This document shows positions 2,903-28,884 of a stretch of DNA of 32,000 nt, in pieces. Numbering within the stretch: the stretch's first letter is position 1; every line of letters starts with the position of its first letter. Below the pieces are notes generated by a model. It saw nothing but the letters and a program-made list of their open reading frames with translations. It was not told the DNA's origin and searched no databases. The stretch is taken from assembly GCF_900167395.1 (NCBI RefSeq), contig NZ_FUWK01000025.1, positions 11,882 to 43,881 on the forward strand, written 5' to 3'. Source of the DNA: Nitrosomonas europaea (GTDB taxonomy: Bacteria; Pseudomonadota; Gammaproteobacteria; Burkholderiales; Nitrosomonadaceae). Position numbers and translations under genes: made by a program.

Positions 2903-3328
2903 TGACGGGTTGGCCGACTGACATCTTCTGTTTTTCTTTACGTACTACGATTTTACACTTTCAGATATCCGCAGTTTTTAGGTGGCGTTTATCATGAAAC
3001 CAGGGGAATATATTCATAACCATAATACAAACGTGTGGAAAACATCTGCAGCTCGTTGGGCATATATAGCAGAAGGAGATCGTGTTCCCAGGGATCAGAC
3101 ATGACACCGAACCCGTGTGGCACTTTTGCTTATTCGCTGAACTTAAGGAACCTCTGATTAAGTCCCATATGGCCCGCACACCGTGTTTTGCGGATGGAAT
3201 GCAAGGGTGAGTGAGGCAGTGATGGCTGATCCCTTCACAATGAGCTCAACGCTGCTTGTTAGCTTAATCGTTAGCCGTTCTCGTATTTCAGTGAAACCTG
3301 TAATCCGTCTTAATCATGGAGAAACGTT

Positions 3329-4033: not shown

Positions 4034-4088
4034 TGCCAATTCGCGGCATGGTTTATTCAAACATCAGGTTCTTGTGCGGGAGAATTCG

Positions 4089-4463: not shown

Positions 4464-4519
4464 TCGTTCATTCAGGTCGATGCTGTTTCTCGTAATGGCA
4501 ATTTGATGAAATAAGAACA

Positions 4520-13181: not shown

Positions 13182-14681
13182 TCAGTAATTCCACTGTAAC
13201 TGGAATCTCAGGACATCAGCCTTGTATCGTTCGTAAGGGGCACTTGCTACATTGGTACGATTCATCATGTGATAAACCGCTGTAAGCTCAATTTCTTTCA
13301 TAACCTGCCATTCCAGTCCAAATTCCAGATCATTAACGTGATTTCTCGGGGCGTTGCGCTCGAATTTCTGACCACCCTTGAAGTGTTGCCATTTAACGAA
13401 CGGGAACAGCGTTCCCCAGCGTAATCCATCGATTTTGTAGGTTGCCAGAACATAACCACCATTGAGCGAGGATTCAGTAAGCATCGTCTGGCCGTCATTT
13501 AACTGAGGCCCCCGCCCCCAGTTCCATTCTGCCTGCAGCCCGAAGGGTTGCGGATAAAGTACGGCATGCACCCCGACACGCTCATCTTTGAAACCTTTCT
13601 CGGGTGCATCCATGACCGGAGTAAATCCGCCTGCAGGGCCTGTTGATGGAACGAAGCGTCCACGTAGAGCTTGTATACCTGCTTCAAGAATTTGACCGTT
13701 GCTGAATTGGTGTGGGTAGGTGAAGCGGGTGACCATGTGCACACCGTTATTTCCTTCGAGGCGGTTGGCACCCTGTCCATTGTAGATACCAAAGGCGAAC
13801 ATGCCATAATCACCGGATCCTTTCAGATTCTTCGCCATGACTTCTTTGAACCGGTCGCGTATATGAGTCGGAGCCCAGTAGAAGAATGCACCGATGTCAC
13901 GCTCATCCCGACAGCAACTGTTCATGGCATCATTACGGTCAAGTGCAAGGCGATTTTGGCTGGATTGCAGGTTCTCAAAACTATAAGGGATTTTTGATTG
14001 CCCGACCCTGACCCGGAATTCCTTGTTCTTATCGAAGTGGATATCGGCGTAGGCATCCCTTAACTGAGCGAAATGGCCTGTACTGGAGCCAGACGGAGTG
14101 CTGGCAAAGTCGGGTTGTATATACAGAGAGAGATGATCGTTGATATCTCCGAAAATGACCAAACGTGCCCGTCTGATCAGGAAGGAACCATCCTCACCTA
14201 CCGATTTGTCAGGCCAGTAAGATACTGCATCCTTATCGCCACTCACCGTACTACTGTAGCGGAATTGTGTATAGCCCCGAATGCCGATTCTGTCGTACCA
14301 CTTTTTTTCTTCTTTGGGTTTTTCAGCCGAAGGCTCATTGCTGTGTGCAGCGATTTCCTCTGATTTTCTCCGGATATCAGATTCTGCTCCGGATTGGCCC
14401 GAATTTTCCTGAAATTTTGCTTCACCTTGCGCCAGGCCGGTTGTTGTATTGCTGACAGGCTGGCTTGACTCGGTATCTGGCTTGCTTTGAGATTGAACGG
14501 GTGACTCTTTTACTTGCTGGAAAGTACCCAGTTTGATCCTGTTTTTGCCGGGTTCGGTGTAAACCTGTTTGGTAGCTGTGTCTACATACAGGATTAATTC
14601 TTGTGCACCGGCTGGAAAGAAATGGGATGTAACGAGAATTAATCCCAAGCCACATATTGTTAAGTTGAATCTTTTTATCAT
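13182..14681 (-). CDS. outer-membrane porin, phosphate-selective porin O/P-like
   Basis: 499 aa. Signal peptide MIKRFNLTICGLGLILVTSHFFPAGAQE and an aromatic C-terminal beta-signal LRFQLQWNY. GGGAGG RBS. The family call comes from the overall look (WYDRIGIRGYTQFRY), not from a search. Confidence 0.65.
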   Translation of the reverse strand: MIKRFNLTICGLGLILVTSHFFPAGAQELILYVDTATKQVYTEPGKNRIKLGTFQQVKESPVQSQSKPDTESSQPVSNTTTGLAQGEAKFQENSGQSGAESDIRRKSEEIAAHSNEPSAEKPKEEKKWYDRIGIRGYTQFRYSSTVSGDKDAVSYWPDKSVGEDGSFLIRRARLVIFGDINDHLSLYIQPDFASTPSGSSTGHFAQLRDAYADIHFDKNKEFRVRVGQSKIPYSFENLQSSQNRLALDRNDAMNSCCRDERDIGAFFYWAPTHIRDRFKEVMAKNLKGSGDYGMFAFGIYNGQGANRLEGNNGVHMVTRFTYPHQFSNGQILEAGIQALRGRFVPSTGPAGGFTPVMDAPEKGFKDERVGVHAVLYPQPFGLQAEWNWGRGPQLNDGQTMLTESSLNGGYVLATYKIDGLRWGTLFPFVKWQHFKGGQKFERNAPRNHVNDLEFGLEWQVMKEIELTAVYHMMNRTNVASAPYERYKADVLRFQLQWNY

Positions 14682-14916: not shown

Positions 14917-15666
14917 CTAGTGATTTTTCTTTTCTAACTCCGCTTTGATATCTTCTGCGATAGCTTGGTAAAGCGGGCGAAAAATCGGGCGCATATTGCT
15001 GATAATACTGTTGATTTCTACCATGGATGGGAAACGCAGACCACGATGCTCGACGGGTGCGCCGATGGGTTCCAGTTGCGCACCTAGTCTGCTGAAGTGA
15101 CTGGCCAGCCGTTCTTCGGTTAGCATGAAAAGTACTCTGATATCGTGTATGCGTGCCAGTTCGATTGTGCCGATATAAAGACTCAGCGGAATGTAGGGAA
15201 AGCGCATCATTGGGCCTGTACTAAAATCTTCTTCAGAAATATTGATAGGATGATTCTTTTCACCTTTTCGCCGGCGAAAGGCGGCGATAACAGCAAGACG
15301 GGAAACTTCACCAATTTTATCTGCCGGTAGTCTGGACGGATCTATGATGGAGCGGTCGAGCGTCTGAGCACAGGTTTTCTCAAAGGGCAAGCGCCTGTCG
15401 TTACTGTTTGATGACGGACGGATGATACGGGTACAGCCGATGAATGTATCGTTATTGATACTGCGAATTAGAAGATGTAGTGAGTGGGCATCATATTCAT
15501 CTATCTCAAATCCGTCAGATCGTGAAGATTCAAACTGCAAATCTTCGCAATAAACGGAGTGACGGACGCGATAAGCCTCACGCTTCAACTCTTCGGTCAA
15601 TGCTGGCACGATTTTGAAGTACTGCCTGAAAGAAGTGCCCAAATGGCTATTTTCCTGGGTAAACAC
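14917..15666 (-). CDS. PEP-CTERM/exosortase system-associated acyltransferase (N-acyl amino acid synthase-like, GNAT/LuxI-related)
   Basis: FRQYFKIVPALTEELKREAYRVRHSVYCEDLQFE, EIDEYDAHSLHLLIR and IGEVSRLAVIAAFRRRKGE match my recollection of the TIGR03694-type family. The start is non-ATG: GTG 15666, or TTG 15642 with AGGAAA 8 nt upstream. Confidence 0.75.
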   Translation of the reverse strand: MFTQENSHLGTSFRQYFKIVPALTEELKREAYRVRHSVYCEDLQFESSRSDGFEIDEYDAHSLHLLIRSINNDTFIGCTRIIRPSSNSNDRRLPFEKTCAQTLDRSIIDPSRLPADKIGEVSRLAVIAAFRRRKGEKNHPINISEEDFSTGPMMRFPYIPLSLYIGTIELARIHDIRVLFMLTEERLASHFSRLGAQLEPIGAPVEHRGLRFPSMVEINSIISNMRPIFRPLYQAIAEDIKAELEKKNH

Positions 15667-15790: not shown

Positions 15791-16564
15791 TCATTCAAGT
15801 CTCTTCAGATAATCCTTGGTGAATATTTTGTCCGGCAGATCACGCAGTTTCATATCCGAGTAATCAAGTACTGAAACTTCACCTGACTTCAGCGCATCTT
15901 CCATGATGATGCGGGTTGGGCGCATCTCGCCGAGAATGTTGTCAAAATTCTCGTAACGGCTGGTCTTTAGCAATCGACCCGAAACAGAGTAGAACTCTGC
16001 TTTATACGGCCTGAAATTGGATTGATTTACCCATAACAACACTTTCTGGTAAGTGACTGAGCGATCTATACCAGTAAGTTCAAGGACATAGTAGTCTTCA
16101 TCATCGATTGATTCATTACGCAGCAGTTGCGGATGATAGTCACCAGTAAAGTTGGCGCGAGCAATATCACCGTTGGCAACCTGGCCGGTCAGCCGCTGGG
16201 AAAGTGATAGCCGTATCGGCTGCGAAACACTGGGCATGAAAACCCATAAATCACGCCCTTTCATGAGAATTGCCTGACCACGCTCGGATGCAGGCTCGGT
16301 AATCATGACGATGCTGTTTTCGTTACCCTTGGAAAGTACTTGGTAACGATACAGATCTTCTGCGTGATCAGGAGCAGCTGTGCGAATAGCGACATTGACC
16401 TGAAAGCTGTCCTGCGGGAAGCGAATTTCATCCGCTTTTTCCAGTATACTTTGGGCGGTTACGGCAGATTTTTCAGTTTCCACCGGGGATGAAAACGATG
16501 TGCCTCCCTGAGCCAGTAGAAAACAACCTGTTATCAATGAAAGTAATAAGGAATATAAGTTCAT
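15791..16564 (-). CDS. LolA-like periplasmic carrier (outer membrane lipoprotein-sorting protein family)
   Basis: ATG at 16564 (GGAG RBS) gives a signal peptide MNLYSLLLSLITGCFLLAQGG. Family-like stretches are GRDLWVFMPSVSQPIRLS, ANGDIARANFTGDY and YYVLELTG. The 40-aa extension in the ORF track overlaps the divergent ATPase gene. Confidence 0.75.
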   Translation of the reverse strand: MNLYSLLLSLITGCFLLAQGGTSFSSPVETEKSAVTAQSILEKADEIRFPQDSFQVNVAIRTAAPDHAEDLYRYQVLSKGNENSIVMITEPASERGQAILMKGRDLWVFMPSVSQPIRLSLSQRLTGQVANGDIARANFTGDYHPQLLRNESIDDEDYYVLELTGIDRSVTYQKVLLWVNQSNFRPYKAEFYSVSGRLLKTSRYENFDNILGEMRPTRIIMEDALKSGEVSVLDYSDMKLRDLPDKIFTKDYLKRLE

Positions 16565-16631
16565 ATTCAATCTCCATGAGTAAACTGTCCGGGTTAGACT
16601 ACCCTGAAATCGTTCGTTCGGGGCCAGACAA

Positions 16632-17327
16632 GTGAGCAGCATCGTCCGCATTGAAAATGTATTCAAGGAATATACGCTCGGCACAAGCCGGGTTCATGCA
16701 CTCAAGGATATCAATCTGCAAATCGGAAATGGGGAGTTTCTAGCCATTGCCGGTCCTTCAGGTAGTGGAAAATCAACATTGCTTAATCTAATCGGTTGTA
16801 TCGATATTCCGTCTTCCGGAAAGATTTATATCGATGACCGGGATACTAGCGGGCAAACGCCAGATCAGCTATCAGAACTCAGAGCTAGAACTATCGGCTT
16901 TATTTTTCAGACATTTAATCTTTTTTCAGTCTTGTCAGCAGAGGAGAATATTGAATACCCTTTGCTGCAATTCAAGGAATTGCGTGCTGCTGAACGCCGT
17001 GAGCGGATTGTAAAATTTCTCGACATTGTCGGGCTGGCCGAGTTTGCCGATCATCGACCTAATCAGTTAAGTGGTGGCCAGCGCCAGCGTGTCGCAATCG
17101 CCCGCGCTCTCGCCACCCATCCCAAAATCATCCTGGCGGATGAACCAACCGCCAATCTCGATCACAAGACAGGCGAAGGTATTCTGCAATTGATGAAGGA
17201 CATCAATCGCAACAGTGGTACGACTTTCATTTTTTCAACGCATGATGCCAAAGTAATGGCCATGGCGGAGCGTTTGATACGCATCGAAGACGGACAGCTT
17301 GTCGGGGAAGATGCCGTTCATACCTGA
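16632..17327 (+). CDS. ABC transporter ATP-binding protein, LolD/MacB type
   Basis: GTG start. Walker A GPSGSGKST, signature LSGGQRQRVAIARAL, Walker B ILADEPT. Confidence 0.9.
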   Translation: MSSIVRIENVFKEYTLGTSRVHALKDINLQIGNGEFLAIAGPSGSGKSTLLNLIGCIDIPSSGKIYIDDRDTSGQTPDQLSELRARTIGFIFQTFNLFSVLSAEENIEYPLLQFKELRAAERRERIVKFLDIVGLAEFADHRPNQLSGGQRQRVAIARALATHPKIILADEPTANLDHKTGEGILQLMKDINRNSGTTFIFSTHDAKVMAMAERLIRIEDGQLVGEDAVHT

Positions 17328-17338
17328 CCGATGCGACG

Positions 17339-18838
17339 ATGATTCTATACCCCCGTAGCGCTGTACTGGATTGCTTCGGCACGGCGTCTTCGCAAAGACG
17401 GGGTGTGGTGGCGCCAGCCAGTTTTTCACAGATCACAGGGCAGTCAGTCGGAAAAATCGGGGTTCTGTTCCTGTTGCTGATGGTGTTGTGGAGCGCGAAT
17501 CTCTGCAATTCCTCAGACATTACACCACTTTCTGCAAACAGAGCGAACGTCGGGCAGATGGTGCAAGCGTTTACCTTCGATGATTTATTCAAAGAGGATG
17601 GCCCCAGTTCCGATCTACCACAACGTGTATTCCGGCAAACTTCTTCCTGGCGCGGATTTTCGCAACTGGAATTTGCTGAAACGATTGCCAGCCCCAAACA
17701 TGCATCAAAACTGCGTTTGCGTTCTGAACTATCGAATCTTGGCCAGTTGAGCCCAAACGTAAAATGGAAGCTGAGTGCCCGCATCGATTACGATGCAATC
17801 TACGATCTGTCTGATTTTTATTCGCGTCAGGTACGCCGGGATCAGCGGTTTGAGCTATTTCTGCGGGAAAATTATCTGGATTTTTCGATTGCTGATTTCG
17901 ATGTCCGTGTAGGTCGCCAGCATATCGTCTGGGGAGAAATGGTTGGGCTGTTCTTCGCAGATGTCGTTTCCGCCAAGGACATGCGTGAGTTTGTGCTGCC
18001 TGATTTCGATATTCTGCGTATTCCGCAATGGGCTGTCCGTACTGAGTATTCCAAAAATGACTTTCATGCTGATCTGATCTGGATTCCATTTGCCAGTCTG
18101 GATGAGATTGGTCGGCCAGGGGCTGATTTTTACCCATTCAAGCTCCCCGTTGCTGCACCAGTCAGTTTTTTGAAAGAAGATCGCTCCGGGCGCAACGTCG
18201 CTCACTCGAATTATGGAATCCGGCTATCCCAGCTGACGAATGGCTGGGATGTCTCTGCATTTTATTATCACAGTCTCGATGCCACCCCTACTTTCCACCG
18301 GATCAGCCAGCCCTGGGAACCGCTGCTGTTTCAGGCACGCCATGGAGAAATCGACCAGGCGGGCGGGACAGTGACTAAAGACTTGGGATCGGCGGTACTC
18401 AAGGGAGAATTCGTTTACACGCATGGACGTCGCTTCAACGTGACCCGCCCGACTGCAGCGGATGGTCTGGTACGGCAGGATACTATTGATTATGCACTGG
18501 GGCTGGATTTCACACTACCATCGGATATCCGGCTGAATTTGCAGTTCTTTCAGCGCGCGTATCTGAATTATGATCGGGATATTTTTCAGGATCGGCTGGA
18601 AAACGGGGGCAGCATTTTTCTGCAGGGAGACTTATGGCGCGATTTTCAGGGGCAGATATTGTTGATCCACAGTTTCAATCGTAATGAATGGATGCTGCGT
18701 CCGCGCCTTACCTGGAACTTCGCCAGAAACTGGAAACTGGCGGCAGGTGCAGATATTTTCAATGGCCCTCCCACTGGACTGTTCGGCCGGTTTGACAGCA
18801 GCGATAGAGTATATACCGAGCTGCGTTTTTCTTTTTAG
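17339..18838 (+). CDS. secreted outer-membrane beta-barrel protein (DUF1302-like impression)
   Basis: Hydrophobic signal segment GKIGVLFLLLMVLWSA. VRVGRQHIVWGE motif. C-terminal beta-signal VYTELRFSF. The start is uncertain (ATG 17339, or GTG 17405/17408 after a CGTCTT-CGCA-AAGACG hairpin at 17386-17401). Confidence 0.55.
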   Translation: MILYPRSAVLDCFGTASSQRRGVVAPASFSQITGQSVGKIGVLFLLLMVLWSANLCNSSDITPLSANRANVGQMVQAFTFDDLFKEDGPSSDLPQRVFRQTSSWRGFSQLEFAETIASPKHASKLRLRSELSNLGQLSPNVKWKLSARIDYDAIYDLSDFYSRQVRRDQRFELFLRENYLDFSIADFDVRVGRQHIVWGEMVGLFFADVVSAKDMREFVLPDFDILRIPQWAVRTEYSKNDFHADLIWIPFASLDEIGRPGADFYPFKLPVAAPVSFLKEDRSGRNVAHSNYGIRLSQLTNGWDVSAFYYHSLDATPTFHRISQPWEPLLFQARHGEIDQAGGTVTKDLGSAVLKGEFVYTHGRRFNVTRPTAADGLVRQDTIDYALGLDFTLPSDIRLNLQFFQRAYLNYDRDIFQDRLENGGSIFLQGDLWRDFQGQILLIHSFNRNEWMLRPRLTWNFARNWKLAAGADIFNGPPTGLFGRFDSSDRVYTELRFSF

Positions 18839-18874
18839 TTGGTCGTTCTCAAAAAATGTCGGAAAATTTTACAT

Positions 18875-20086
18875 TTATATATTTTGTCGTAAGGCATCAA
18901 CAACTGGTATACGTGAAACATGCCTGGCCGGCAGTATTGCCGCTAGTACAGTAGCAGTAAAGCCGATGCCTAATGCGAGTAGTAAAACAGACGGTGCGAT
19001 CTGGATTCGGGCGATATAGCCAAGATCAGCATTGGGAGGGGGGGGCATGGGGATACCTATGGCGGAAATGGCCGTGGCCAGCAGTACCCCTATCCCGATT
19101 CCTAATCCTCCCCCAATCAATCCCAGTAAAAGGTTTTCACTGATAATCAGCCGGAATACCTGATGGCTGTCATTACCCAGGGCCATCATCGTGCCGAATT
19201 CACCCACGCGCTCGAAAATACTCATATTGACGCTGTTGGCAACGCTGAGCAGTACCATGATCAGGATAATGATCTGCAGCACACCAAATTGCCCTTTATA
19301 CATTTCCACCGTTTTTTCGTAAAAATCATTCAGTTCCACCCAGGTTTTGACTTCCAGGTCTGATGGTCCTAATGATTGCTTTAACTGTGCTGCAATCTGA
19401 TCGGTTTCTTCTGTATGTTTCAGTGAAATGACGAGTGCGTTGACTCCTTGAGTGCCGAGCAGCTCCTGTGCGGCAGCTAACGGGATTCTGACAGCGCGTG
19501 CATCAAAATCGTTGGAAAAACTCTGGAAAATACCCGTTACTTGAAAATCCAGACTATTGAGCGCACCATCAAGCGTGTTGACCAGTAATGTCACCGGGTC
19601 ACCCGGTTTTAATTGCAGTGCCTGAGCGACACCTTTACCCAGCAAAATGCCGAATGTATCTTCGTCACTTAGCTGTCGTCCTGCGGTAATCTGTACAGAG
19701 CTACCCAGTTTCACTTCGTGTGACGGTTCCACACCCTCACCAATGATCGGCAGATCACTTTTACCATTGTTGAGCAATCCGGAGAAATTGAGCCGTGCCA
19801 TGACCTGCGCAACTTCAGTTTCACCAGCAATTTGTTGCCTGATAGTATCGGGCGTATCTATCAGATATTTTTCCGGAGAACGTGAGCCGGCTTCATAGTA
19901 CCCTTGGCGATAGATTTGCAGATGTCCACTTTGCGAGTGGATGAGCGCTTCACCCAGTTGAACATAGATATCCTGTACCCATCCACCCGCCAGAATGATA
20001 CCGGTTACTCCGGCGATAACTGCTGCCAGCGTCATCAGCGTATGGGTTTTTTGACGGAGGATATTGCGTAACGCGAGTTTGAACAT
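18875..20086 (-). CDS. ABC transporter permease, FtsX/MacB/LolC-E type (paralogue 2)
   Basis: 403 aa. N-terminus MFKLALRNILRQKTHTLMTLAAV. One TM, a roughly 230-aa periplasmic domain, then three C-terminal TMs. GGAGA RBS. Confidence 0.85.
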   Translation of the reverse strand: MFKLALRNILRQKTHTLMTLAAVIAGVTGIILAGGWVQDIYVQLGEALIHSQSGHLQIYRQGYYEAGSRSPEKYLIDTPDTIRQQIAGETEVAQVMARLNFSGLLNNGKSDLPIIGEGVEPSHEVKLGSSVQITAGRQLSDEDTFGILLGKGVAQALQLKPGDPVTLLVNTLDGALNSLDFQVTGIFQSFSNDFDARAVRIPLAAAQELLGTQGVNALVISLKHTEETDQIAAQLKQSLGPSDLEVKTWVELNDFYEKTVEMYKGQFGVLQIIILIMVLLSVANSVNMSIFERVGEFGTMMALGNDSHQVFRLIISENLLLGLIGGGLGIGIGVLLATAISAIGIPMPPPPNADLGYIARIQIAPSVLLLALGIGFTATVLAAILPARHVSRIPVVDALRQNI

Positions 20087-20154
20087 GATTCTCCGGGGGA
20101 TATGGGCAAGCAGTTATGTTCTATACCCGATGAAGAATGAAACGATAAACCTGT

Positions 20155-20772
20155 TTACAATAACGAGAAACTGCGCAGAATGGCTTCGACTTTCTTATCC
20201 TCCTTGGCAAGTTCACGCAGGGCATGGATCAATCGCGTAAGCTTCGATCCTTCAGGTGACTGAAGCTCCAGATCACGTTCGAGATCTTCCTCCAACCGCT
20301 GTAATCGCATATCCATGGGCCGGAGTGTCGAATAGCGGTCCCATATGATGAAGCCGATCAAACCGAATATGCCAGCGATCGTTACCAGCATCAGCTGTTG
20401 TATAAAATCCAACCGCCGGTCGATAGCTTCAAAACGTTGATCTACCGCAATAAAACGCTGATCTATCTGCTTCTGCATAGCAGTAAAATGTTGATCTACC
20501 GCCGTAAAACGTTGATCTACCGCCGTAAAACGTTGATCCATCTGCTCCTGCATAGCAGTAAAACGCTGATCTATCGCCGTAAAACGCTGATCTATCTGTT
20601 CCTGCATAGCATTGAAACGCAGATCCATCTTTTCTTCCAAAGCTTTTTGCCCGGCTTTGAGTTCTGCCAGTGACTCGATAATTTCTCGATCACTGATACG
20701 TGGTGCGACGTCTACGGCGGCAACAGGCATGGCGACCAATACGCTGGTAAGTAATAACAGGATTTTGATCAT
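20155..20772 (-). CDS. signal-peptide + tandem-repeat coiled-coil + single-TM + charged C-tail protein, unknown function
   Basis: 205 aa. MIKILLLLTSVLVAMPVAA signal, nine xDQRFxA units, TM LMLVTIAGIFGLIGFIIW and a C-tail rich in E/R/K/L. It lies between the two permease genes on the same strand. Confidence 0.6.
   Translation of the reverse strand: MIKILLLLTSVLVAMPVAAVDVAPRISDREIIESLAELKAGQKALEEKMDLRFNAMQEQIDQRFTAIDQRFTAMQEQMDQRFTAVDQRFTAVDQHFTAMQKQIDQRFIAVDQRFEAIDRRLDFIQQLMLVTIAGIFGLIGFIIWDRYSTLRPMDMRLQRLEEDLERDLELQSPEGSKLTRLIHALRELAKEDKKVEAILRSFSLL
20404..20628 (-). repeat. in-frame tandem array of 21-nt and 33-nt units (9 units)
   Basis: Unit boundaries read off the DNA: 33 nt (20596-20628), 21 (20575-20595), 33 (20542-20574), 21 (20521-20541), 21 (20500-20520), 33 (20467-20499), 21 (20446-20466), 21 (20425-20445), 21 (20404-20424). 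Units 20500-20520 and 20521-20541 match at 19 of 21 nt. Confidence 0.9.
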
Positions 20773-21021
20773 CTCGAATAAAATTCTCTGAATATATGCT
20801 TTAAACTGTTTTTAATTCGACTGGTTCAATATGTTCGTATACAGACAGATCAGGGAATGAGACAAACATCCACTAGCTTACCCGGATAGCAACCCATTCT
20901 CCCATATGTTTCCATTAAGAATCAATGCAATATTAAATAACAAGTACTCCATAAGTACCAGCACCGGACAACATGATGCAGCGATTCGGCATCCAACTGT
21001 CGTCTTTGCTCGCCTGCTACT

Positions 21022-22269
21022 TTATCGATTATGCCTTAACGCATCTACAATCTGCATGCGTGAGGCTTTCCAGGCGGGGTAAACGCTGGCGATGAGTGTG
21101 GTGAGAATAGCAAGCGCCAATGCTTCCAGCACCATGTTCGAGGTGAGTAGTATCTCCCCGGTATAACCACGGGCCATGCCGGGGGGAGGAGGCATCGGAA
21201 TGCCGATACTGGAAATAATTGCAGCGAGCAACCATCCGATTAGTATACCTAGCGCGCCGCCTATCCCGCCGATCAGAGCGCCTTCGCATAGAAACTGGCG
21301 CAGAATGTCGAATTTCTTTACACCCAATGCCATTGCTGTTCCGATTTCGCCGGTACGTTCCACCACGTTCATCGTCATGGTATTGGAGATGCCGAGCAGA
21401 ATGATGAGTGCAATGATCAGCTTGATGGCTTGCACCTGCTTTGTAAACAGAACGGTTGTTTTATTGTAGAAATCAGCCAGTTGATACCAGGGAACGATTT
21501 CAAAGCGATCTTGCGATAATGTGTTACGTAACGCCGCCAGTGCTGCATCGGTTTGGTGGGTGTCGTTCAACAGTACTACCCAACTGTGAGCTCCCTGGGT
21601 ACGCAATAACTGCTGTGCGGTGCTGATCGGCAGGCGCAATGCATTGTCATCATACGATTTGGTAACGGTAGAAAACAGGCCGTCGATAGTCATTTCAACG
21701 GCATTGATTCCACCTGTTGCCGTGTTCACCAGTAACACCACCTGGTCGCCTACCGTAACGCCCAGATTACGAGCTAACCCTTCTCCCATGATGAGATGAT
21801 CAGGGTGGTCGGCCGATAAATTGCTTCCAGTCGAGATCTTGAGCGCGTTACCGAAGTAAACTTGCTCTTGCGGATCCACTCCTTCGCCAATGAATGAAAG
21901 CGTGGCATCACCGTGACTAATCAACCCGCTGAAGCTCAAACGCGGCACAATCGTTTTGATCAGATGATTGCTGTTTTGAAGCGTAGGATTTTCCAATAAA
22001 TCCTGTTCCAGATCATCTGAGAATAGAAAACGGTAGGGATCAGCCTTGCCGGCTTCAAAATAACCCGGTTTAATGATCTGTAAATGGCCTAACTGGGAAT
22101 GGATAGTGGATTCACGCATATCCTGATAAATCCATTCGATGAAGCCGCTGGCCAGAATCAGTGCAACCATTCCCAATGTTATGGAGCCGATAGAAATGGT
22201 GCTTCGGCGTTTCTGGCGCAGCATATTGCGCCAAATTAAATAGCAATTAAAAGAAATTATTTTCCACAT
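21022..22269 (-). CDS. ABC transporter permease, FtsX/MacB/LolC-E type (paralogue 1)
   Basis: 415 aa. LIWRNMLRQKRRSTISIGSITLG N-terminus and the same 1+3 TM layout. It shares the IGIPMPPPP loop with paralogue 2. Confidence 0.85.
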   Translation of the reverse strand: MWKIISFNCYLIWRNMLRQKRRSTISIGSITLGMVALILASGFIEWIYQDMRESTIHSQLGHLQIIKPGYFEAGKADPYRFLFSDDLEQDLLENPTLQNSNHLIKTIVPRLSFSGLISHGDATLSFIGEGVDPQEQVYFGNALKISTGSNLSADHPDHLIMGEGLARNLGVTVGDQVVLLVNTATGGINAVEMTIDGLFSTVTKSYDDNALRLPISTAQQLLRTQGAHSWVVLLNDTHQTDAALAALRNTLSQDRFEIVPWYQLADFYNKTTVLFTKQVQAIKLIIALIILLGISNTMTMNVVERTGEIGTAMALGVKKFDILRQFLCEGALIGGIGGALGILIGWLLAAIISSIGIPMPPPPGMARGYTGEILLTSNMVLEALALAILTTLIASVYPAWKASRMQIVDALRHNR

Positions 22270-22438
22270 GCTGTAAGTTAGCTTTAGTTTATATCAATTG
22301 TTTTATGGCTTATTTTTGTCAGATGATGAGTTGTTAACATACCATTATTCCGTCGACTTTCTTTACACTCTTGGTGAAATATAAAAATAAAATTTAATAA
22401 AGTGTTGATTATTAAGTGATAAATATTCTGGCACATAT

Positions 22439-22454
22439 CGTGCTCGTTTATAAG
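22439..22454 (+). promoter_or_regulatory. sigma54 (-24/-12) promoter upstream of the PEP-CTERM protein gene
   Basis: TGGCAC-ATATC-GTGCT versus consensus TGGCAC-N5-TTGCW. GG and GC are separated by exactly 10 nt. It lies about 85 nt upstream of the ATG at 22540, in an AT-rich divergent intergenic region. Confidence 0.6.
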
Positions 22455-22539
22455 CAAAAGAATGTTTAGGTAATCGTAGTTTATCTAGCATAATTTTTAG
22501 CAGGAAAAAATTCTCAGGTTTATCTTTAAGGAGATCGTG

Positions 22540-23349
22540 ATGAAACAAACAAACTTGAAAAAGCAGTTAGTGGCTGTTGCTATTGGAGGTGTCTTTGCAT
22601 TAGGAGTAACAGCTCAAGCGACAGCGGCTGGAATATTTCAGTATGACTTGGATGGACAAGGAGGAAGTGGAGAAACTGTTATAGCGGACGCTATACAGGG
22701 GGTTGCCAATGAATCTCTCAGCTTGCTGGCGGACGGCAAAACTCTTGATGGACAGGGGTGGGTTAAGTTCAATACGTTTCTTCTTAGTACAGTTGATCAA
22801 GACTACAAGTATTCTGAGGTACTACTTTATGCTACTTTCAAAATAACTACAGAATTGGTGGATGGGACTATAGGTGCTAGTGGTAGTGAGTACAAGGTTA
22901 CTAGTTTTACATTTGATCTTTACAAAGATTTGGGTAACGACAATACTTTTACTGTAGCAGATGCAAGTAGTTCCACTCACGCTTCTGTCACTGCAGTAGG
23001 TGTAGATGACTATATAGCGTCTGGTGAGTTAATAGTTGGTAGTGCTAACATACAAGCTGCTAGTGGAGCAGCGATTAATGTGGAAACTACTTTTAATTTA
23101 CAGCCTGGAGGAGGAGAATATTTCTTTGACCCCGATCCTTTTTATAACATCTTGAAGGCTGGTTTTAACAGTACGGGTGGAAATTGGGCATTCACTAATA
23201 ATATGTTAGCTGTTGGGAGTGCTACTGGTGTTATCGATTTTAATAGCACGCCAACTGAAGTTCCTGAACCAGCTACGTTAGCGCTTTTGGGTATTGGGTT
23301 GCTTGGCTTTGGTGCAAGACGAGCACTTGTTGCGAGTAAAAATGCATAG
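22540..23349 (+). CDS. PEP-CTERM sorting-domain protein
   Basis: ATG 22540 lies 6 nt after AAGGAG. Signal peptide MKQTNLKKQLVAVAIGGVFALGVTAQATAAG. The C-terminus is the canonical PEP motif + TM + basic cluster: VPEPATLALLGIGLLGFGARRALVASKNA. Confidence 0.85.
   Translation: MKQTNLKKQLVAVAIGGVFALGVTAQATAAGIFQYDLDGQGGSGETVIADAIQGVANESLSLLADGKTLDGQGWVKFNTFLLSTVDQDYKYSEVLLYATFKITTELVDGTIGASGSEYKVTSFTFDLYKDLGNDNTFTVADASSSTHASVTAVGVDDYIASGELIVGSANIQAASGAAINVETTFNLQPGGGEYFFDPDPFYNILKAGFNSTGGNWAFTNNMLAVGSATGVIDFNSTPTEVPEPATLALLGIGLLGFGARRALVASKNA
23260..23346 (+). other. PEP-CTERM sorting signal (exosortase recognition region)
   Basis: VPEP, a hydrophobic helix ATLALLGIGLLGFGA, then RR. Confidence 0.85.
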
Positions 23350-23378
23350 TTTTTATTGTTTTTAGGTAGTCAGAAAAA

Positions 23379-23405
23379 AGCCCCCTGTTTCAGGGGGCTT
23401 TTTTT
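23379..23405 (+). terminator. rho-independent terminator after the PEP-CTERM gene
   Basis: AGCCCCCTG (23379-23387), loop TTT, CAGGGGGCT (23391-23399) running into a T-tract (23399-23405). An A-tract upstream makes it potentially bidirectional. Confidence 0.85.
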
Positions 23406-23564: not shown

Positions 23565-24150
23565 TGGCTAACTCATAGAGGTAAGCTCCCGGTTTTGCCG
23601 GGGGGGCTCACCAAGGTTTGACCTTTACGACGAAAGAGTATCAGAGTCTGAGTCACACGAGATGGGACTGCAAGTATCATGTGGTGTTCATACCGAAGAG
23701 GCGCAAGAAGCGAATATTCGGTATGCTGCGTTGGCACTTGGGCGAGCTATTCCACGAACTGGCCTCCCACAAGGAATCGAAAATTGTCGAAGGTCACCTG
23801 ATGGACGATCACGTTCATATGTGCATCAGCATTCCCCCGAAGTACGCGGTGTCGAACGTGGTTGGGTACTTGAAGGGGAAGAGCGCGATCCAGATTGCGC
23901 GCAAGTTTGGCGGGCGACAGAAGAACTTTACCGGCGAGCATTTTTGGGCGAGAGGCTATTTTGTTTCGACGGTTGGATTGGACGATAACATTGTTCGAAC
24001 GTACATCCGCAACCAGGAAGATGAGGACGAGCGCTACGACCAGATGAAGCTGGAAATATAGGGTAGCCGCCAGGGGCGGCTCACGGTTTCATGGGCGCCT
24101 TTGAGGCGCTCACCACCCAAATCACCGGCTTTGCCGGTGGTATTTGACTT
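23565..24150 (+). mobile_element. IS200-group (IS200/IS605 family) insertion sequence; boundaries approximate
   Basis: Single tnpA gene flanked by similar subterminal hairpins: left CTCCCGG-TTTTG-CCGGGGG (23586-23604), right CACCGGC-TTT-GCCGGTG (24123-24139). Extra hairpins GCCGCC-AGG-GGCGGC and GCGCC-TTTGA-GGCGC follow the stop codon. The exact ends cannot be set without a second copy. Confidence 0.8.
23618..24061 (+). CDS. tnpA: IS200/IS605 family Y1 (HUH) transposase TnpA
   Basis: 147 aa. SLSHTRWDCKYHVVFIPKRRKK, HUH motif DHVHMCI, catalytic Tyr context RTYIRNQ. TTG is the only in-frame start after the upstream stop at 23582-23584. Confidence 0.9.
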   Translation: MTFTTKEYQSLSHTRWDCKYHVVFIPKRRKKRIFGMLRWHLGELFHELASHKESKIVEGHLMDDHVHMCISIPPKYAVSNVVGYLKGKSAIQIARKFGGRQKNFTGEHFWARGYFVSTVGLDDNIVRTYIRNQEDEDERYDQMKLEI

Positions 24151-24175
24151 TAGTCATATTTAATTTTTGAAGCGA

Positions 24176-25864
24176 ATGGAATATCAATCATTACCATTAC
24201 CCGCCGCGCTAATTGCAGAGCTCCAAGCTCAGCTTGGAAAAGACAAGGTCGTTCTGGAGCAGGATGCGCTGGAAGTTACCACACGAACTTGTATTCCTTA
24301 CCGGGAATTACCGGGAGCTATTGTTTATCCGGAGAGTGTAGAGGAGGTGCAGGCTATCGTTCGACTCGCAGCAAAGTTTAACGTACCGGTATGGCCGGTC
24401 AGTACTGGGAAGAACTGGGGGTACGGCGAAAAAACAGCATGTTATCCCGGTGGCATTACAGTGGTGCTGGAACGCATGAATCGGATTCATGAGGTTGATG
24501 AGGCTCTAGGCTATGCGGTAATTGAACCTGGTGTGACCTATAAGCAGCTTAACGAATTTTTAAAGGCTAATTATCCTGATCTCTGGTCAGATTCGGCGGG
24601 GACTACACAATTTGCCAGCGTTTTGGGTAATGCGCTGGATAAAGGCCGTGGGTTAACCCCTTATGCGGATCATTTTGGGAGCTTATGTGGTATGGATGTT
24701 GTTTTGCCTGATGGCAGGCTGCTTGAGACCGGTGGCGGACCGCAAGGTAATAATCATGCAAAATATGTATACAAATGGGGGGTGGGGCCTTATCTCGATG
24801 GTTTGTTTACTCAGTCCAATTTTGGCATTGTTGTCAAGGCGGGTATCTGGTTGATGCCCAAGCCTGAGTGTTTTGACTGGGCCGCTTTTGAATATACCGC
24901 TTCTGATGAAAAATTCGGTGATTTTATTGATGAGTTGAGGCAGCTTGTTTCGCAGGGCGTTTTGCGCTCACGCCCACATCTTGCCAATGATTTTGCCATG
25001 ATGTGTATCATTTCACAGTATCCGTATGAATTGCTTGATGGTAAGAAATATTTGAGTGAGGCTGCACTGGAAAGCTGGCGCCGTCAGCATGGTGTTGCAC
25101 GTTGGACATTTGGTTGTGGTTTGTATGGTAGCCAGGCGGAAGTACGGTTTCAGAAACAGGCAATTAAGCGCGTACTTGGCCGTTATGGTCGGGTCCAGTT
25201 TTTGGGTGCGGCTGTTGAAGATAATTGGTATGGGCGTTTACTGCGTCAAGTTGCGCCAGTAGTAAACCGGTTGATGGGTAAGTCCGATGCTTTTATGGAA
25301 GCATTGATTCCCGGAATTAATTTGTTCCGAGGTATTCCTACAGATTATTTTGTTCGTCAGGTTTATTTCAAATCACATCCACAGAAACCTGCAGATGATG
25401 TCGATCCGGCACGCGACCAGTGTGGCCTGTTATGGATAGGGCCAATAGTACCGTTTACTGCCAAGCATATTTTGCATGCTCTGACTCTGGTTAAGGAAGT
25501 ATATACCCGACATGAGTTTGATTTTTTTGTAGAGCTGATTATTGAAAGTCCACGGACGATTATCTTGCTGGTGGGAGTATTTTATGAACGGAATAATGCT
25601 AATGAAATAGCGCGTGCCCAAGCCTGGTATAAGGATGTACGTGAGCTATTCTTGCAAAATGGTTACCCTCCATATCGAACTACTACGATGAGTATGTCTG
25701 GATCACTGGATCAGAATCCGATAGCAAGAGATTTTCTGAAGATGATCAAAGGTGTTATTGACCCGCAAGATCTGATAGCACCAGGGCGGTATGGCGTTTC
25801 AGGATTATCTGGGGCTGATTCTTCTTTGGTTGCTCTCAAGCAGGCAGATAATGATCCGTATTAA
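24176..25864 (+). CDS. FAD-binding oxidoreductase, vanillyl-alcohol oxidase / p-cresol methylhydroxylase (VAO/PCMH) family
   Basis: PVWPVSTGKNWGYG, GPYLDGLFTQSNFGIVVKAGIWLMPKP and C-terminal IDPQDLIAPGRYGV closely resemble the VAO sequence as I remember it. Start is ATG 24176 (or TTG 24167), with no obvious RBS. It lies about 25 nt from the IS200 right end. Confidence 0.8.
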   Translation: MEYQSLPLPAALIAELQAQLGKDKVVLEQDALEVTTRTCIPYRELPGAIVYPESVEEVQAIVRLAAKFNVPVWPVSTGKNWGYGEKTACYPGGITVVLERMNRIHEVDEALGYAVIEPGVTYKQLNEFLKANYPDLWSDSAGTTQFASVLGNALDKGRGLTPYADHFGSLCGMDVVLPDGRLLETGGGPQGNNHAKYVYKWGVGPYLDGLFTQSNFGIVVKAGIWLMPKPECFDWAAFEYTASDEKFGDFIDELRQLVSQGVLRSRPHLANDFAMMCIISQYPYELLDGKKYLSEAALESWRRQHGVARWTFGCGLYGSQAEVRFQKQAIKRVLGRYGRVQFLGAAVEDNWYGRLLRQVAPVVNRLMGKSDAFMEALIPGINLFRGIPTDYFVRQVYFKSHPQKPADDVDPARDQCGLLWIGPIVPFTAKHILHALTLVKEVYTRHEFDFFVELIIESPRTIILLVGVFYERNNANEIARAQAWYKDVRELFLQNGYPPYRTTTMSMSGSLDQNPIARDFLKMIKGVIDPQDLIAPGRYGVSGLSGADSSLVALKQADNDPY

Positions 25865-25896
25865 GTAACTTTAAAGTATTTTTCATTCTTTGATCT

Positions 25897-26967
25897 ATGT
25901 CTCGTTGTAAACGTTGTCTACTTCCCCATAGTGCGCCCGGCGCTGCAGTTGATTCAAGCGGAATATGTGCCTTTTGCAGATCTTATGTACCTAATGATAA
26001 AAACTTGTCTGATCAGTTACATCAGCAGCGTCAGCTTGATCTCGAAAAAGCGCTGGCGGATTGCCGTGGCAAGGGGCCCTATGATGTTCTGGTTTGTTTG
26101 AGCGGAGGGAAAGATAGTCTTTATTTGCTTTACCGGCTAAAGGTTGAGTATAAGCTGAATGTATTGGCATTTACTACCGATGTCAATATTCCCGATATCG
26201 CTTGGAATAACATTCATCGAACCATTCAGAAACTGGATATTGATCATCTGGTATATCGGCCTTCTGCTCAGTTTTACCGCAAACTTTTTCGATATTTACT
26301 CATGAATCAGGAAGAGCGCGGTGCTGTTTATACAGTTTCCTATGTATATGCTCCGCTGTTTGAAGGGGATGCACTGCAAGTAGCGATGGAAAAAGGCATT
26401 CCTCTGGTGCTCGCGGGTTATTCACCAGGACAGCCAGAGCCGGAGCGGATGGAGTTTGAATTTTCGCGCAAGCTGATTACTGAAACAGACTGGACACCTC
26501 CCGGGTTACGTCAGTCGGGTGAATTTACTGAAGAAGAACTGGCGCGTTTCTGGAATCCGAAACGATTTCCGGCAGATACCCGTTTCCCACGTTATCTCGC
26601 TCCTTTCCATGCATGGGATTATGATCAGGAAGCGATGATCCGCAAAGTGCATGATTTGGAGCTGGTTAAACGGCGAGCACACGGAAACCCAATTTACAGC
26701 AATTATCCGATCAATTGGCTGCTGATGTATTCAGATCTGAAGCATTTTGGCTATAACCCTTATGCACCTGAGTTTTCTGCTTTGATCCGTGCGGGTAAAG
26801 CAAGTCGTGCTTATTGGTGGTTTATGACCCCGATTGTCAATTTCATCATCCGTAATAAGCTATTGATAGGCCGTAATACCGTTGACCAGTTACAGCAGCT
26901 TGGTCTTCAAGAGGATGATTTGAAAATTACTCGACCGCGTGGTGCTTACGATCCGGAAATTGATTAA
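25897..26967 (+). CDS. PP-loop ATP pyrophosphatase family protein, N-acetyl-sugar amidotransferase (WbuX/WbpG)-like
   Basis: N-terminal zinc-ribbon cysteines CKRC...CAFC, then PP-loop VLVCLSGGKDS. The 356-aa length fits that subfamily, but the subfamily call is an impression. Confidence 0.7.
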   Translation: MSRCKRCLLPHSAPGAAVDSSGICAFCRSYVPNDKNLSDQLHQQRQLDLEKALADCRGKGPYDVLVCLSGGKDSLYLLYRLKVEYKLNVLAFTTDVNIPDIAWNNIHRTIQKLDIDHLVYRPSAQFYRKLFRYLLMNQEERGAVYTVSYVYAPLFEGDALQVAMEKGIPLVLAGYSPGQPEPERMEFEFSRKLITETDWTPPGLRQSGEFTEEELARFWNPKRFPADTRFPRYLAPFHAWDYDQEAMIRKVHDLELVKRRAHGNPIYSNYPINWLLMYSDLKHFGYNPYAPEFSALIRAGKASRAYWWFMTPIVNFIIRNKLLIGRNTVDQLQQLGLQEDDLKITRPRGAYDPEID

Positions 26968-27036
26968 TTTGGCAGGGTGTGTTGAGGGGGAAGAGGGAAA
27001 TTATATTGAGTCATGAGATAGTCGCTGGGATACGAA

Positions 27037-28884
27037 ATGATAGGTAAGGCTGGAATCGGGACGATACTTGATCTGCTGAGAGTACGTAGTGCAGCTACAC
27101 CTGCTGCAACTGCATTTCAGGTTTTGGTTCAGAATAAAAGTTGGCAGCCGACCAATTGGGAGCAGTTTGTACAGGCCGCAGGGCGGGTTGGTGCAAGGTT
27201 AACAGATTTTGGGGTCAGGAAAGGTGATCATGTTGGTATCATGGCTGCAACATCACTTGACTGGGAATATGCCCAAATGGGGGCATTGTTTGCAGGAGCC
27301 GTTGTTGCTGGAATTGACCCTGAGTATCCGGCGGACCAGTTAAATCATGTGATCGAGAATCTTGGGTTGTCAGTCCTGTTTGTTCAGAATCGTTCAGTCT
27401 TCGCAAAAATTCCATTAGAACTTCGTCAGCAGATCAGTGTATTTATTTTCTTTGAGGGTGAATCTCAGCAGAAAAATGAATTCAGCATGATCAATTTACT
27501 GGTAGAGCAAGAAACTGATACTTCTATTTGTTTGCCGGATGTGTTGCCACAGGATGAGGCAGTGATCGTATTTTCTTCTGGTACAACCGGGATGCCCAAA
27601 GCAATTATCTTTACCCATGAACAGGTTATTATGGCGGTTGAGGCCATTATGCGGGTATTTAATGATTTGAGTAGCCAGACGATACTTTTGTGCTGGTTGC
27701 CGTTATCGAACCTTTTTCAGCGTATTGTCAATTTTTGTGCAATAAAAATTGGTGCATCGAGTTACATATTGAGTGATCCGCGTGATTTGATGCGGTACGT
27801 CAAACAGGTGAATCCAGATGTTCTGATCGGTGTGCCAAAGGTACTTGAGCGAGTGCATTCGGGGGTTGTCGACCATATTGAAGGTCGGGTTTGGCCATTG
27901 CGTATGCTGGCGCGATGGGCAATTAGGATAGGTTACAAGCGGGCTGCGGCAAGGAGTGATCGAGGTGATTCTTTTGGTCTGATGAATAAACTGCTATGGA
28001 AACAGGCCGAGAATATGTTTTTACGCCGCCTGCGAATGGTTTTCGGTTCGCGGGTTCGTTATCTCGTCAGTGGATCTGCTGCGATGCCGGTTTGGCTATT
28101 GAGATGGTTTGACGCAATTGGATTACCGGTATATGAAGTTTATGGTATTAGTGAGAATGTTATCCCTGTCGCGGTAAATTCATCTGGCAGCCGTAAATTG
28201 GGGGCTGTGGGTAAACCATTATTGCCAAATGAGATAAAGCTCACTATGGATGGTGAGATCCTTGTTCGAGGCCCAGGAGTGTTCAAGGGTTATCAGGATA
28301 GAAAGGAAGAGAGTAATTTGCGTTTTTCACCAGATGGTTATTGGCACACTGGTGATCTGGGAGAGCTAGATACAGCAGGATTTCTTTCTATTGTCGGGAG
28401 AAAGAGCGATGTTTTCAAAACATCTGCAGGAAAATGGATTGCTCCTGTGAGAATTGAAGAACGACTGGGACGTATTGCTTATGTTGAGCAAAGTGTCGTA
28501 TTTCAATATGAATCAGGCAAAATTGTTGCTGTCATTGTCGTTGATTTGGAGAAATGTGCACAGAAAACCAGTGCAGTGCGCTATTCTGAAGTTTCATTAC
28601 ATATGGAAAATATGGCTAAGAATAAGCTTCATCAAATTCTGGAGACAGATATCAATGCAGAATTGGAAGATCTGCCTCTTTATCAGCGACCGGTTTATGT
28701 TGCTGTGACTGATAAGTTTTTTACGGTAAGCGGAGGGGAGCTAACTGTCAATATGAAGGTGCGTCGCAGTATTGTTGCACAGCGGTTTTCAGCGTACTTC
28801 GAAAATACTGTATGTAAATCTGATCAGGGTCGGGCTGAAAACGGTCATGTAGTTATGAGTGGGCCAACCATTTTTTTTATATGA
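27037..28884 (+). CDS. AMP-dependent acyl-CoA/acyl-AMP ligase (long-chain fatty acid ligase-like)
   Basis: Adenylation motifs VFSSGTTGMPKAIIFTH, EVYGISE and WHTGDLGELDTAGFLSIVGRKSDVFKTSAGKWIAP. 615 aa. Confidence 0.85.
   Translation: MIGKAGIGTILDLLRVRSAATPAATAFQVLVQNKSWQPTNWEQFVQAAGRVGARLTDFGVRKGDHVGIMAATSLDWEYAQMGALFAGAVVAGIDPEYPADQLNHVIENLGLSVLFVQNRSVFAKIPLELRQQISVFIFFEGESQQKNEFSMINLLVEQETDTSICLPDVLPQDEAVIVFSSGTTGMPKAIIFTHEQVIMAVEAIMRVFNDLSSQTILLCWLPLSNLFQRIVNFCAIKIGASSYILSDPRDLMRYVKQVNPDVLIGVPKVLERVHSGVVDHIEGRVWPLRMLARWAIRIGYKRAAARSDRGDSFGLMNKLLWKQAENMFLRRLRMVFGSRVRYLVSGSAAMPVWLLRWFDAIGLPVYEVYGISENVIPVAVNSSGSRKLGAVGKPLLPNEIKLTMDGEILVRGPGVFKGYQDRKEESNLRFSPDGYWHTGDLGELDTAGFLSIVGRKSDVFKTSAGKWIAPVRIEERLGRIAYVEQSVVFQYESGKIVAVIVVDLEKCAQKTSAVRYSEVSLHMENMAKNKLHQILETDINAELEDLPLYQRPVYVAVTDKFFTVSGGELTVNMKVRRSIVAQRFSAYFENTVCKSDQGRAENGHVVMSGPTIFFI

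Follow-up and report, generated by a model that had tools for sequence, protein, structure and literature searches.

A 32,000-nucleotide stretch of the Nitrosomonas europaea genome (assembly GCF_900167395.1, contig NZ_FUWK01000025.1, positions 11,882 to 43,881; hereafter the window) carries genes for an ATP-binding cassette (ABC) ATPase, two membrane permeases, a LolA-like periplasmic carrier and an outer-membrane beta-barrel of the DUF1302 family, which together form a conserved module. With a confidence modestly above even, we favour the view that this module is an accessory, shuttle-type exporter of a lipid derived from an N-acyl amino acid, tied to the extracellular-matrix programme of exosortase A (XrtA) and its PEP-CTERM proteins. 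It can be seen as a LolA_like and DUF1302 shuttle driven by an ABC pump, a variant on known systems that belongs to exosortase A neighbourhoods and now has a plausible cargo.

A module kept through three gene orders

When genomes were scanned with a single representative of each species, at least 526 relatives came up, and the 80 best were mapped with the proteins of the window. Distant barrels (25-40% identity) served as seeds for a scan of metagenomes, which gave at least 535. The 80 best genome loci are all betaproteobacterial and belong to Nitrosomonadaceae, Rhodocyclaceae (including Accumulibacter, Dechloromonas and Propionivibrio), Thiobacillus, Gallionellaceae, Sulfuriferula and Hydrogenophilales. 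Where at least 8 kb of sequence is available on both sides of the barrel gene (47 loci), the ATPase is always present, the carrier is found in 46 loci and both permeases in 37.

The arrangement of these genes is also conserved. A carrier gene diverging from an ATPase-barrel pair is seen in 69 of the 80 genome loci, the median spacer being about 125 nt as measured between tblastn ends; the sequence-only reading of this DNA had considered such wiring unusual, and it proves to be the standard layout. The permease orthologues keep a constant order, permease 2 then permease 1, and are found either convergent with the barrel gene and directly past it, as in N. europaea, or a few kilobases away.

Two other architectures extend the comparison. 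In seven metagenome loci (L087-L089, L092, L099, L100 and L108), the ATPase, a single permease, the carrier and the barrel are encoded in the same direction, and the barrels are 33-40% identical to that of N. europaea; in L088, the stop and start codons of this ATPase-permease-carrier-barrel operon overlap. The third architecture, MMPL-LolA_like-DUF1302, occurs in L160 and with the same layout in L143, an MMPL/RND protein replacing the ABC pump, and the L160 carrier matches both PF17131 and DUF1329. Because the same functions are kept through three gene orders, we see strong evidence that the parts work together. Since the carrier and barrel persist as a pair where the ABC pump gives way to MMPL/RND, they are the constant outer half of a system served by different lipid pumps, either ABC or MMPL.

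The pump

The sequence-only reading had listed a carrier, an ATPase, two permeases and a secreted protein with an outer-membrane signature. Every listed part is found where it had been placed, with domain matches far above chance (Table 1), and these five components stand; a sixth gene, encoding a coiled-coil protein of 205 amino acids (aa), had been overlooked.

The ATPase motifs noticed by that reading are confirmed by their residue positions, with Walker A at residues 41-48, the LSGGQ signature at 146-150 and Walker B at 166-172, and the THD of the H-loop occupies residues 203-205. Among NCBIfam models, the top match is to the DevA family (223.6 bits), followed by LolD (216.6 bits), and both scores are under their cut-offs, that of the LolD equivalog model TIGR02211 being at least 307.75 bits. 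The ATPase is 42% identical to Escherichia coli LolD.

Both permeases match PF12704 (MacB_PCD) and PF02687 (FtsX). Each has four hydrophobic segments, organised as one transmembrane (TM) helix, about 230 periplasmic residues and TM helices 2-4; in permease 1 the segments are at residues 17-35, 268-286, 314-332 and 358-376. The two proteins are 39% identical, and this identity and their domains bear out the description of two paralogous four-TM permeases (403 and 415 aa) with large periplasmic domains. Against the lolCE equivalog model (TIGR02212, at least 362 bits) they score 92.2 bits (permease 1) and 106.9 bits (permease 2). Permease 2 shares 26% identity with E. coli LolC in a 272-residue alignment, and its nearest solved relatives by sequence are MacB, which is the best, LolC, YtrF, LolF and LolE. 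With an FtsX domain, a MacB-like periplasmic core, four TM helices and a cognate nucleotide-binding subunit, the pump has the features of a type VII ABC transporter. None of the ten genes between positions 13182 and 25864 matches an HlyD-type membrane-fusion adaptor or a TolC-type channel family in Pfam or NCBIfam.

The carrier

Residues 31-257 of the carrier are 100% identical to PDB entry 3BUU, deposited as 'LolA superfamily protein NE2245'. The mechanically called open reading frame extends to position 16684; the methionine of the signal peptide is at 16564, which upholds the very short divergent gap described earlier between the carrier and ATPase genes. PF17131 (LolA_like) is the only Pfam match of the protein, PF07044 (DUF1329) being unmatched. 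A relationship with the DUF1329-type structure 4Z48 is detected at E 6e-10, and 4Z48 has been grouped with LolA superfamily/DUF1329 proteins in the AmeABCD paper, where 3BUU is cited as a structure of unknown function (PMC6394551). No similarity to E. coli LolA was detectable by BLASTP (E 0.37), the Bacteroidota LolA1 and LolA3 models of NCBIfam give 17 bits against cut-offs of 83-100, and neither the carrier nor the barrel subfamily has an NCBIfam model.

The signal peptide of the N. europaea protein contains the motif 'ITGC', which raised the case of a LolB-like lipoprotein. This candidate was rejected: the cysteine is not conserved among orthologues, a lipobox-like motif of any kind occurs in 14 of 125 orthologues, and most of them have A-x-A sites of the signal peptidase I type. 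Since the orthologues mostly carry ordinary signal peptides lacking a lipobox, the carrier is probably soluble and not lipidated.

The barrel

The barrel protein matches PF06980 over a part of its length (residues 136-389), and its L088 homologue scores 83 bits on this family. Its core (residues ~100-499) is conserved among homologues, as is the C-terminus, which ends in VYTELRFSF and takes the form DRVYTELR(F/Y)SF in the family, with E494, R496 and F499 invariant. The beta-signal proposed from this C-terminus is thereby upheld. At E<1e-3 the relatives of the barrel fall into 2775 clusters (50% identity), and into 281 at E<1e-30; a search of the PDB by sequence found no relative.

The barrel fold of this secreted protein, also proposed earlier, was checked with an AlphaFold2 model, which is nearly all beta with about 20 strands (pLDDT 69, pTM 0.66) and matches porin barrels in Foldseek (probability 1.0, E 3e-13). 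An 18-stranded barrel has been reported for a different DUF1302 protein (PMC13499233), and the model is consistent with it. In the texts searched, DUF1302 barrels have neither a solved structure nor a biochemical role.

The N-terminal region of about 100 residues (17339-17640) is not conserved, and homologues range from ~430 to 720 aa through N-terminal extensions. A hydrophobic, signal-like helix lies at residues 37-54. Given this helix and the unconserved N-terminus, the true start codon may be internal.

Table 1. Features of the N. europaea locus, in window coordinates
Feature	Position	Strand	Match or remark
Porin_O_P gene	13182-14681	-	Porin_O_P, 156 bits
N-acyl amino acid synthase (NAS; PEP-CTERM/exosortase system-associated acyltransferase)	14917-15666	-	TIGR03694, 290.8 bits (cut-off 112); Pfam Acetyltransf_5 and FeeM
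LolA_like carrier NE2245, 257 aa	15791-16564	-	PF17131, 176 bits; signal peptide
Divergent spacer, 67 nt, between carrier-NAS and ATPase-barrel units	16565-16631	.	Sequence read
ABC ATPase, LolD/MacB/DevA/FtsE clade, 231 aa	16632-17327	+	PF00005, 121.8 bits
DUF1302-family outer-membrane beta-barrel, 499 aa	17339-18838	+	PF06980, 46.6 bits (cut-off 23.2)
Permease 1, 403 aa, 4 TM	18875-20086	-	MacB_PCD and FtsX; second in transcription order
Signal-peptide, heptad-repeat coiled-coil, single-TM protein, 205 aa	20155-20772	-	Between the permease genes
Permease 2, 415 aa, 4 TM	21022-22269	-	MacB_PCD and FtsX; first in transcription order
Sigma-54-like -24/-12 element, TGGCACatatcGTGCT	22429-22444	+	One mismatch to consensus
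PepA-type PEP-CTERM protein	22537-23349	+	NF033554 (floc_PepA), 158.9 bits (cut-off 80); PEP-CTERM motif at residues 242-262
Bidirectional intrinsic-terminator-like hairpin	23373-23405		15-bp stem, flanking T and A runs
IS200/IS605-family transposase gene	23618-24061	+	NF033573, 140 bits
FAD_binding_4 oxidase, WbuX-like protein (356 aa), FadD-like acyl-AMP/CoA ligase (615 aa), thioester-reductase-type short-chain dehydrogenase/reductase (371 aa)	24167-29996	+	Family matches

Genes of lipid synthesis and of the exosortase A system

In N. europaea, the NAS gene directly follows the carrier gene in the same orientation, the barrel gene starts 11 nt past the ATPase gene, the permease 1 gene is convergent with the barrel gene and pepA diverges from the permease 2 gene. 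The sequence-only reading had named the NAS product and a processed PEP-CTERM protein as candidate cargoes. At the genomic level both links are upheld, since NAS/FeeM genes and XrtA/PEP-CTERM genes recur beside the module in many genomes and in several gene orders. These neighbours were identified by clustering the surrounding open reading frames of all loci and annotating the recurrent families.

At least three NAS subtypes are found near the module: the TIGR03694 type, a family of FeeM type, and a GNAT/FeeM type encoded immediately downstream of the barrel gene. When only loci with at least 9 kb of flank are counted, a TIGR03694- or FeeM-type NAS lies no more than 9 kb from the barrel in 22 of the 46 loci from genomes and in 5 of the 9 from metagenomes. 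Overall, 62 of 160 loci have a NAS gene, at a median distance of 1.8 kb from the barrel, and 51 of these 62 are within 3 kb.

The association was also examined from the side of the synthase, by means of a profile of TIGR03694-type enzymes and the context of five loci (L165-L169). Four of the five have the full module, with carrier and NAS adjacent, and this carrier-to-NAS order is conserved in these loci as in Nitrosomonadaceae. On one side, the four show the carrier, the divergent ATPase-barrel pair, the permease pair, a ThiF gene and a PEP-CTERM gene, joined in two of them by a nitroreductase gene. On the other side of the NAS gene, L169 carries EpsB_2 (TIGR03013), PrsK, PrsR and PrsT (NCBIfam, 532-856 bits), and L165-L167 have Pfam signatures matching the same gene types. 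In L168, only a 116-aa remnant of the carrier is left beside the NAS gene.

XrtA-system families recur around the module, namely the chain-length determinant TIGR03007, the tyrosine kinase TIGR03018, the export protein TIGR03027 and the outer-membrane protein TIGR03016, together with PrsT and PepA-like proteins. At least one XrtA-specific marker is found within 10 kb in 24 of the 47 genome loci. PEP-CTERM genes adjoin the module in L165-L167 and in 8 genome loci.

Two enzyme families that could modify a lipid are also recurrent, a ThiF-like adenylyltransferase (PRK08223 family) and an Acg/nitroreductase-like flavin mononucleotide protein, and their genes are often within the module, between those for the barrel and the ATPase or permeases. 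They are found in fused forms as well. The L132 locus encodes on one strand, in order, an oxidase, a permease, a nitroreductase-like domain fused to the transporter ATPase, a second permease, a PilZ-FeeM protein, ThiF, the carrier and the barrel; the Acg/nitroreductase-like domain of the fusion (3407-5164, + strand) and the free-standing enzyme share 35% identity across 356 residues. In L167, ThiF is fused with the nitroreductase-like protein (2010-3992, - strand), and the NCBIfam model PRK14852 (compare PRK14851) unites a FeeM-like N-terminus, ThiF and the nitroreductase-like protein. In L088, two FeeM-type genes and a gene for an AMP ligase with acyl carrier protein (ACP) adjoin the operon.

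PilZ domains, receptors of cyclic di-GMP, adjoin the FeeM-type synthases in L088 (5142-5528, - strand) and are fused to one in L132 (6531-7751, + strand). Their presence hints at control of lipid production by cyclic di-GMP.

The oxidase, WbuX-like protein, ligase and reductase genes downstream of pepA in N. europaea have counterparts at other loci. Homologues of the oxidase are beside or inside the module in 11 of the 80 loci and in the same operon in L132, and homologues of the other three lie beside or between module genes in L036 and L104. The four enzymes may tailor the cargo.

Relation to known transport systems

With LolCDE-LolA-LolB, the module shares heterodimeric four-TM permeases with large periplasmic domains and a separate ATPase, that is, a type VII ABC pump, and a soluble carrier of the LolA superfamily followed by a dedicated outer-membrane acceptor. 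It differs in that its carrier comes from another sequence family (PF17131), its acceptor is a DUF1302 beta-barrel of ~400 residues and not the lipoprotein LolB, and its genomic context consists of NAS and XrtA/PEP-CTERM genes in place of housekeeping genes. The set had been described as a paralogue of the Lol machine: it does combine a type VII ABC pump with a carrier and a barrel of its own, while the term is overstated for a carrier showing no detectable LolA similarity. Overall, that interpretation holds in part, the outer-membrane partner being a DUF1302 barrel rather than a LolB-type lipoprotein.

The pairing of a DUF1302 barrel with a LolA-fold periplasmic protein is also found in the DUF1302-DUF1329-BNR-RND clusters, such as Sama_1588-1591 of Shewanella, their Pseudomonas counterparts and AmeABCD of Castellaniella defragrans. 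The carrier and barrel of the module are members of this LolA_like/DUF1329 and DUF1302 lineage, for which RND/MMPL proteins serve as pumps in other settings. These clusters, described from fitness data in the first case (10.1101/072470) and from monoterpene metabolism in the last (PMC6394551), were proposed in both works to export an envelope component. In contrast to them, the engine here is an ABC pump of MacB/LolCE type and not RND/MMPL (COG1033). No RND/MMPL (COG1033) pump or BNR/COG4447 protein was found in the locus with Pfam and NCBIfam, MMPL occurring only in the more distant relatives. Their context differs too, as they are located in catabolic islands or by LuxR-type regulators, whereas this module is next to NAS and XrtA genes.

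MacAB-TolC and the heterocyst glycolipid exporter DevBCA-HgdD belong to the same ABC clade, as seen from the DevA top match of the ATPase and the MacB best match of the permease among solved structures, and DevBCA exports a glycolipid. Unlike the module, both form a continuous tunnel by means of a membrane-fusion protein and a TolC-type channel. Private LolA-fold carriers moving a cluster-encoded lipid to the outer membrane have precedents in aryl polyene and flexirubin clusters and in the extra LolA paralogues of Bacteroidota; these proteins are of other sequence families, and their clusters lack the DUF1302 barrel and the NAS/XrtA context. The synthase, by comparison, is a full-score member of the PEP-CTERM-associated NAS family (TIGR03694), and the known NAS-exosortase link is reproduced here.

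In the texts searched, neither LolA-like nor DUF1302 proteins are linked with NAS or PEP-CTERM, LolA-like proteins are not linked with FtsX/ABC, and the works on LolA-like or DUF1302 proteins with MMPL make no connection to NAS or PEP-CTERM; NE2243-NE2248 are not mentioned in these texts. An earlier mention is possible in the 2011 NAS paper of Craig, Cherry and Brady, which reportedly concerned the PEP-CTERM/exosortase-associated N-acyl amino acid synthase.

Proposed mechanism and cargo

Type VII ABC pumps such as MacB and LolCDE take their substrates from the periplasmic side of the inner membrane, and LolA-fold proteins shield acyl chains. By analogy, two ATPase subunits would drive a heterodimer that pairs permease 2 with permease 1, forming a MacB/LolCE-type pump that would extract a lipid at the periplasmic face of the inner membrane. 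The lipid would pass to the soluble carrier NE2245, which would hand it to the DUF1302 barrel for insertion into the outer membrane or release at the cell surface, and the product would be used in the XrtA/PEP-CTERM extracellular-matrix programme. An outward direction of transport is suggested by what is known of type VII ABC and RND/MMPL pumps. A shuttle mechanism is implied by the combination of a soluble carrier with a barrel that is not of the TolC type. For the carrier-to-barrel hand-off, a DUF1302-DUF1329 complex has been predicted with an ipTM of 0.84 (PMC13499233).

A lipid derived from an N-acyl amino acid is the most likely cargo because the linkage to NAS and tailoring enzymes is recurrent, close and spread over several synthase subtypes, and includes a fusion to the ATPase. 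The XrtA linkage in turn argues for a use in matrix or floc biology. A matrix-linked lipid fits the finding that disruption of a PEP-CTERM-type NAS in Methylomonas LW13 abolished a polysaccharide band (PMC11072679).

Several points weigh against this proposal. Because type VII pumps act from the periplasmic side, a step flipping the lipid across the inner membrane would be required. NAS/FeeM genes are missing from the surrounding 9-10 kb at about half of the related loci, and 10 of 47 loci carry none of the linked marker genes, so the module may carry more than the NAS product, or something else. In N. europaea itself, the window contains neither ThiF-like nor nitroreductase-like genes, and the exosortase NE1797 (XrtA) is encoded elsewhere in the genome (PMC1569441), which makes this copy a dispersed and reduced arrangement. 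Finally, the confidence of the barrel model is only moderate, as the pLDDT given above indicates.

Alternative readings

The cargo could be a protein. PEP-CTERM proteins processed by the exosortase, PepA for example, would then be extracted from the inner membrane and moved to the surface, perhaps attached at their C-terminus to the N-acyl-amino-acid-derived lipid, and the module would amount to a Lol pathway for C-terminal anchors. We hold this to be unlikely, though not strikingly so. The divergent pepA gene, the PEP-CTERM genes adjoining the module at other loci, its location within XrtA loci and a synthase family that is by definition tied to exosortase systems are all in agreement with it, and LolCDE, the nearest characterised ABC relatives, move lipid-anchored proteins. 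However, lipid attachment to exosortase products is only hypothetical, and the RND/MMPL-driven relatives are lipid or small-molecule systems. L088 and L132 are surrounded by small-molecule enzymes (FeeM, AMP ligase-ACP, ThiF and oxidase), and no PEP-CTERM gene was seen among their annotated neighbours.

The module could instead export hydrophobic compounds or lipids of the outer membrane in general, serving solvent or fatty-acid tolerance or outer-membrane homeostasis; this would account for the loci that lack a nearby NAS gene or all of the linked markers. DUF1302/DUF1329 mutants are pleiotropic and these systems occur in monoterpene, aromatic and fatty-acid/ester contexts, and proximity to NAS and XrtA would reflect co-regulated envelope remodelling with no dedicated cargo. 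This explanation appears rather improbable to us, given the short distance between NAS/FeeM and barrel genes across several subtypes and gene orders, the fusion of a tailoring-type enzyme to the ATPase, and operons such as L132 that unite synthase, tailoring enzymes and transporter.

We give little credence to a more elaborate scheme in which exosortase A would transfer PEP-CTERM proteins onto the amine or carboxyl group of a tailored N-acyl-amino-acid lipid, the module then trafficking the anchored proteins or the anchor outward. The linked synthase would make the lipid and the ThiF-like and nitroreductase-like enzymes would tailor it before transfer. If true, this would constitute a second, C-terminal 'lipoprotein' pathway in Gram-negative bacteria.

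It is highly improbable that the barrel is an AlgE-like polysaccharide secretion pore and that the module exports or modifies the XrtA-associated exopolysaccharide. Some database homologues are named 'alginate export domain-containing protein', the module adjoins exopolysaccharide genes, and AlgE is among the published Foldseek matches of another DUF1302 member; the same study places DUF1302 and AlgE homologues in separate sequence clusters (PMC13499233). XrtA loci, moreover, have a polysaccharide export set of their own (TIGR03027, TIGR03007, TIGR03018 and TIGR03016), and a LolA-fold carrier with a MacB/LolCE-type pump points to lipid handling.

That this is the housekeeping Lol lipoprotein-sorting system of the organism, as the lolCE and LolD names of the NCBIfam matches (best for the permeases, second for the ATPase) and the superfamily label of 3BUU might suggest, is very improbable: permease and ATPase scores are far under the equivalog cut-offs, the carrier has no Pfam LolA match and no similarity to E. 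coli LolA, and the outer-membrane partner is a barrel. The module is moreover lost in L168, whereas universal conservation of LolA has been reported for Proteobacteria, and the prs-ispE-lolB context reported for betaproteobacterial LolB is not seen at the locus (PMC9963962). As every part falls outside the LolCDE/LolA families, the set is judged to be accessory, as the sequence-only reading had held.

Regulatory elements and flanking genes

The 67-nt spacer is presumed to be a bidirectional promoter region, although no convincing sigma-54 site or shared promoter was found in it. Sigma-54 or a shared promoter was rejected as an explanation for the control of the module, as the one site close to consensus lies in front of pepA and such sites are as frequent in the window as chance predicts. 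This -24/-12 element (Table 1) is ~95 nt upstream of pepA. RpoN/PrsR control has been reported for PEP-CTERM genes; the element fits it, with the reservation that matches across the window are no more numerous than expected by chance. Right after pepA lies a strong terminator-like hairpin.

The gene between the permease genes contains 21-nt tandem repeats (20431-20625) encoding heptads of the form 'DQRFTA(V/M)', followed in the protein by one TM helix and a tail of ~60 aa. The protein matches no Pfam or NCBIfam family, low-complexity coiled-coil matches being the only ones in PHROGs and Pfam. Since just two of the 80 loci, those of N. europaea and N. halophila type, contain the gene, a role as adaptor or core subunit was rejected, and it is regarded as a lineage-specific insertion. 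The existence of a 198-aa variant in another N. europaea-like assembly suggests that its repeat number varies.

The flanks of the locus differ among relatives. An IS200/IS605-family transposase gene separates pepA from the FAD oxidase gene, and the related Nitrosomonas locus L004 has a glycosyltransferase and a methyltransferase gene at about this position, so this flank is variable. On the other side, the Porin_O_P gene directly downstream of NAS is found with the module in just 2 of 80 loci, those of the closest relatives, and is for this reason judged to be probably unrelated to it.

Significance

NE2245, the crystal structure of which (3BUU) had no assigned function, is now placed in a testable pathway derived from comparative data and leading from a synthase, through possible tailoring, to an ABC pump, a carrier and a barrel. 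This pathway sits in the exosortase/PEP-CTERM loci that are behind floc and granule formation in wastewater, by bacteria such as Accumulibacter, relatives of Zoogloea and nitrifiers. More broadly, the LolA_like and DUF1302 outer half is a reusable cassette, and its combination with different pumps may reflect a general principle for the movement of lipids across the Gram-negative envelope without a tunnel.

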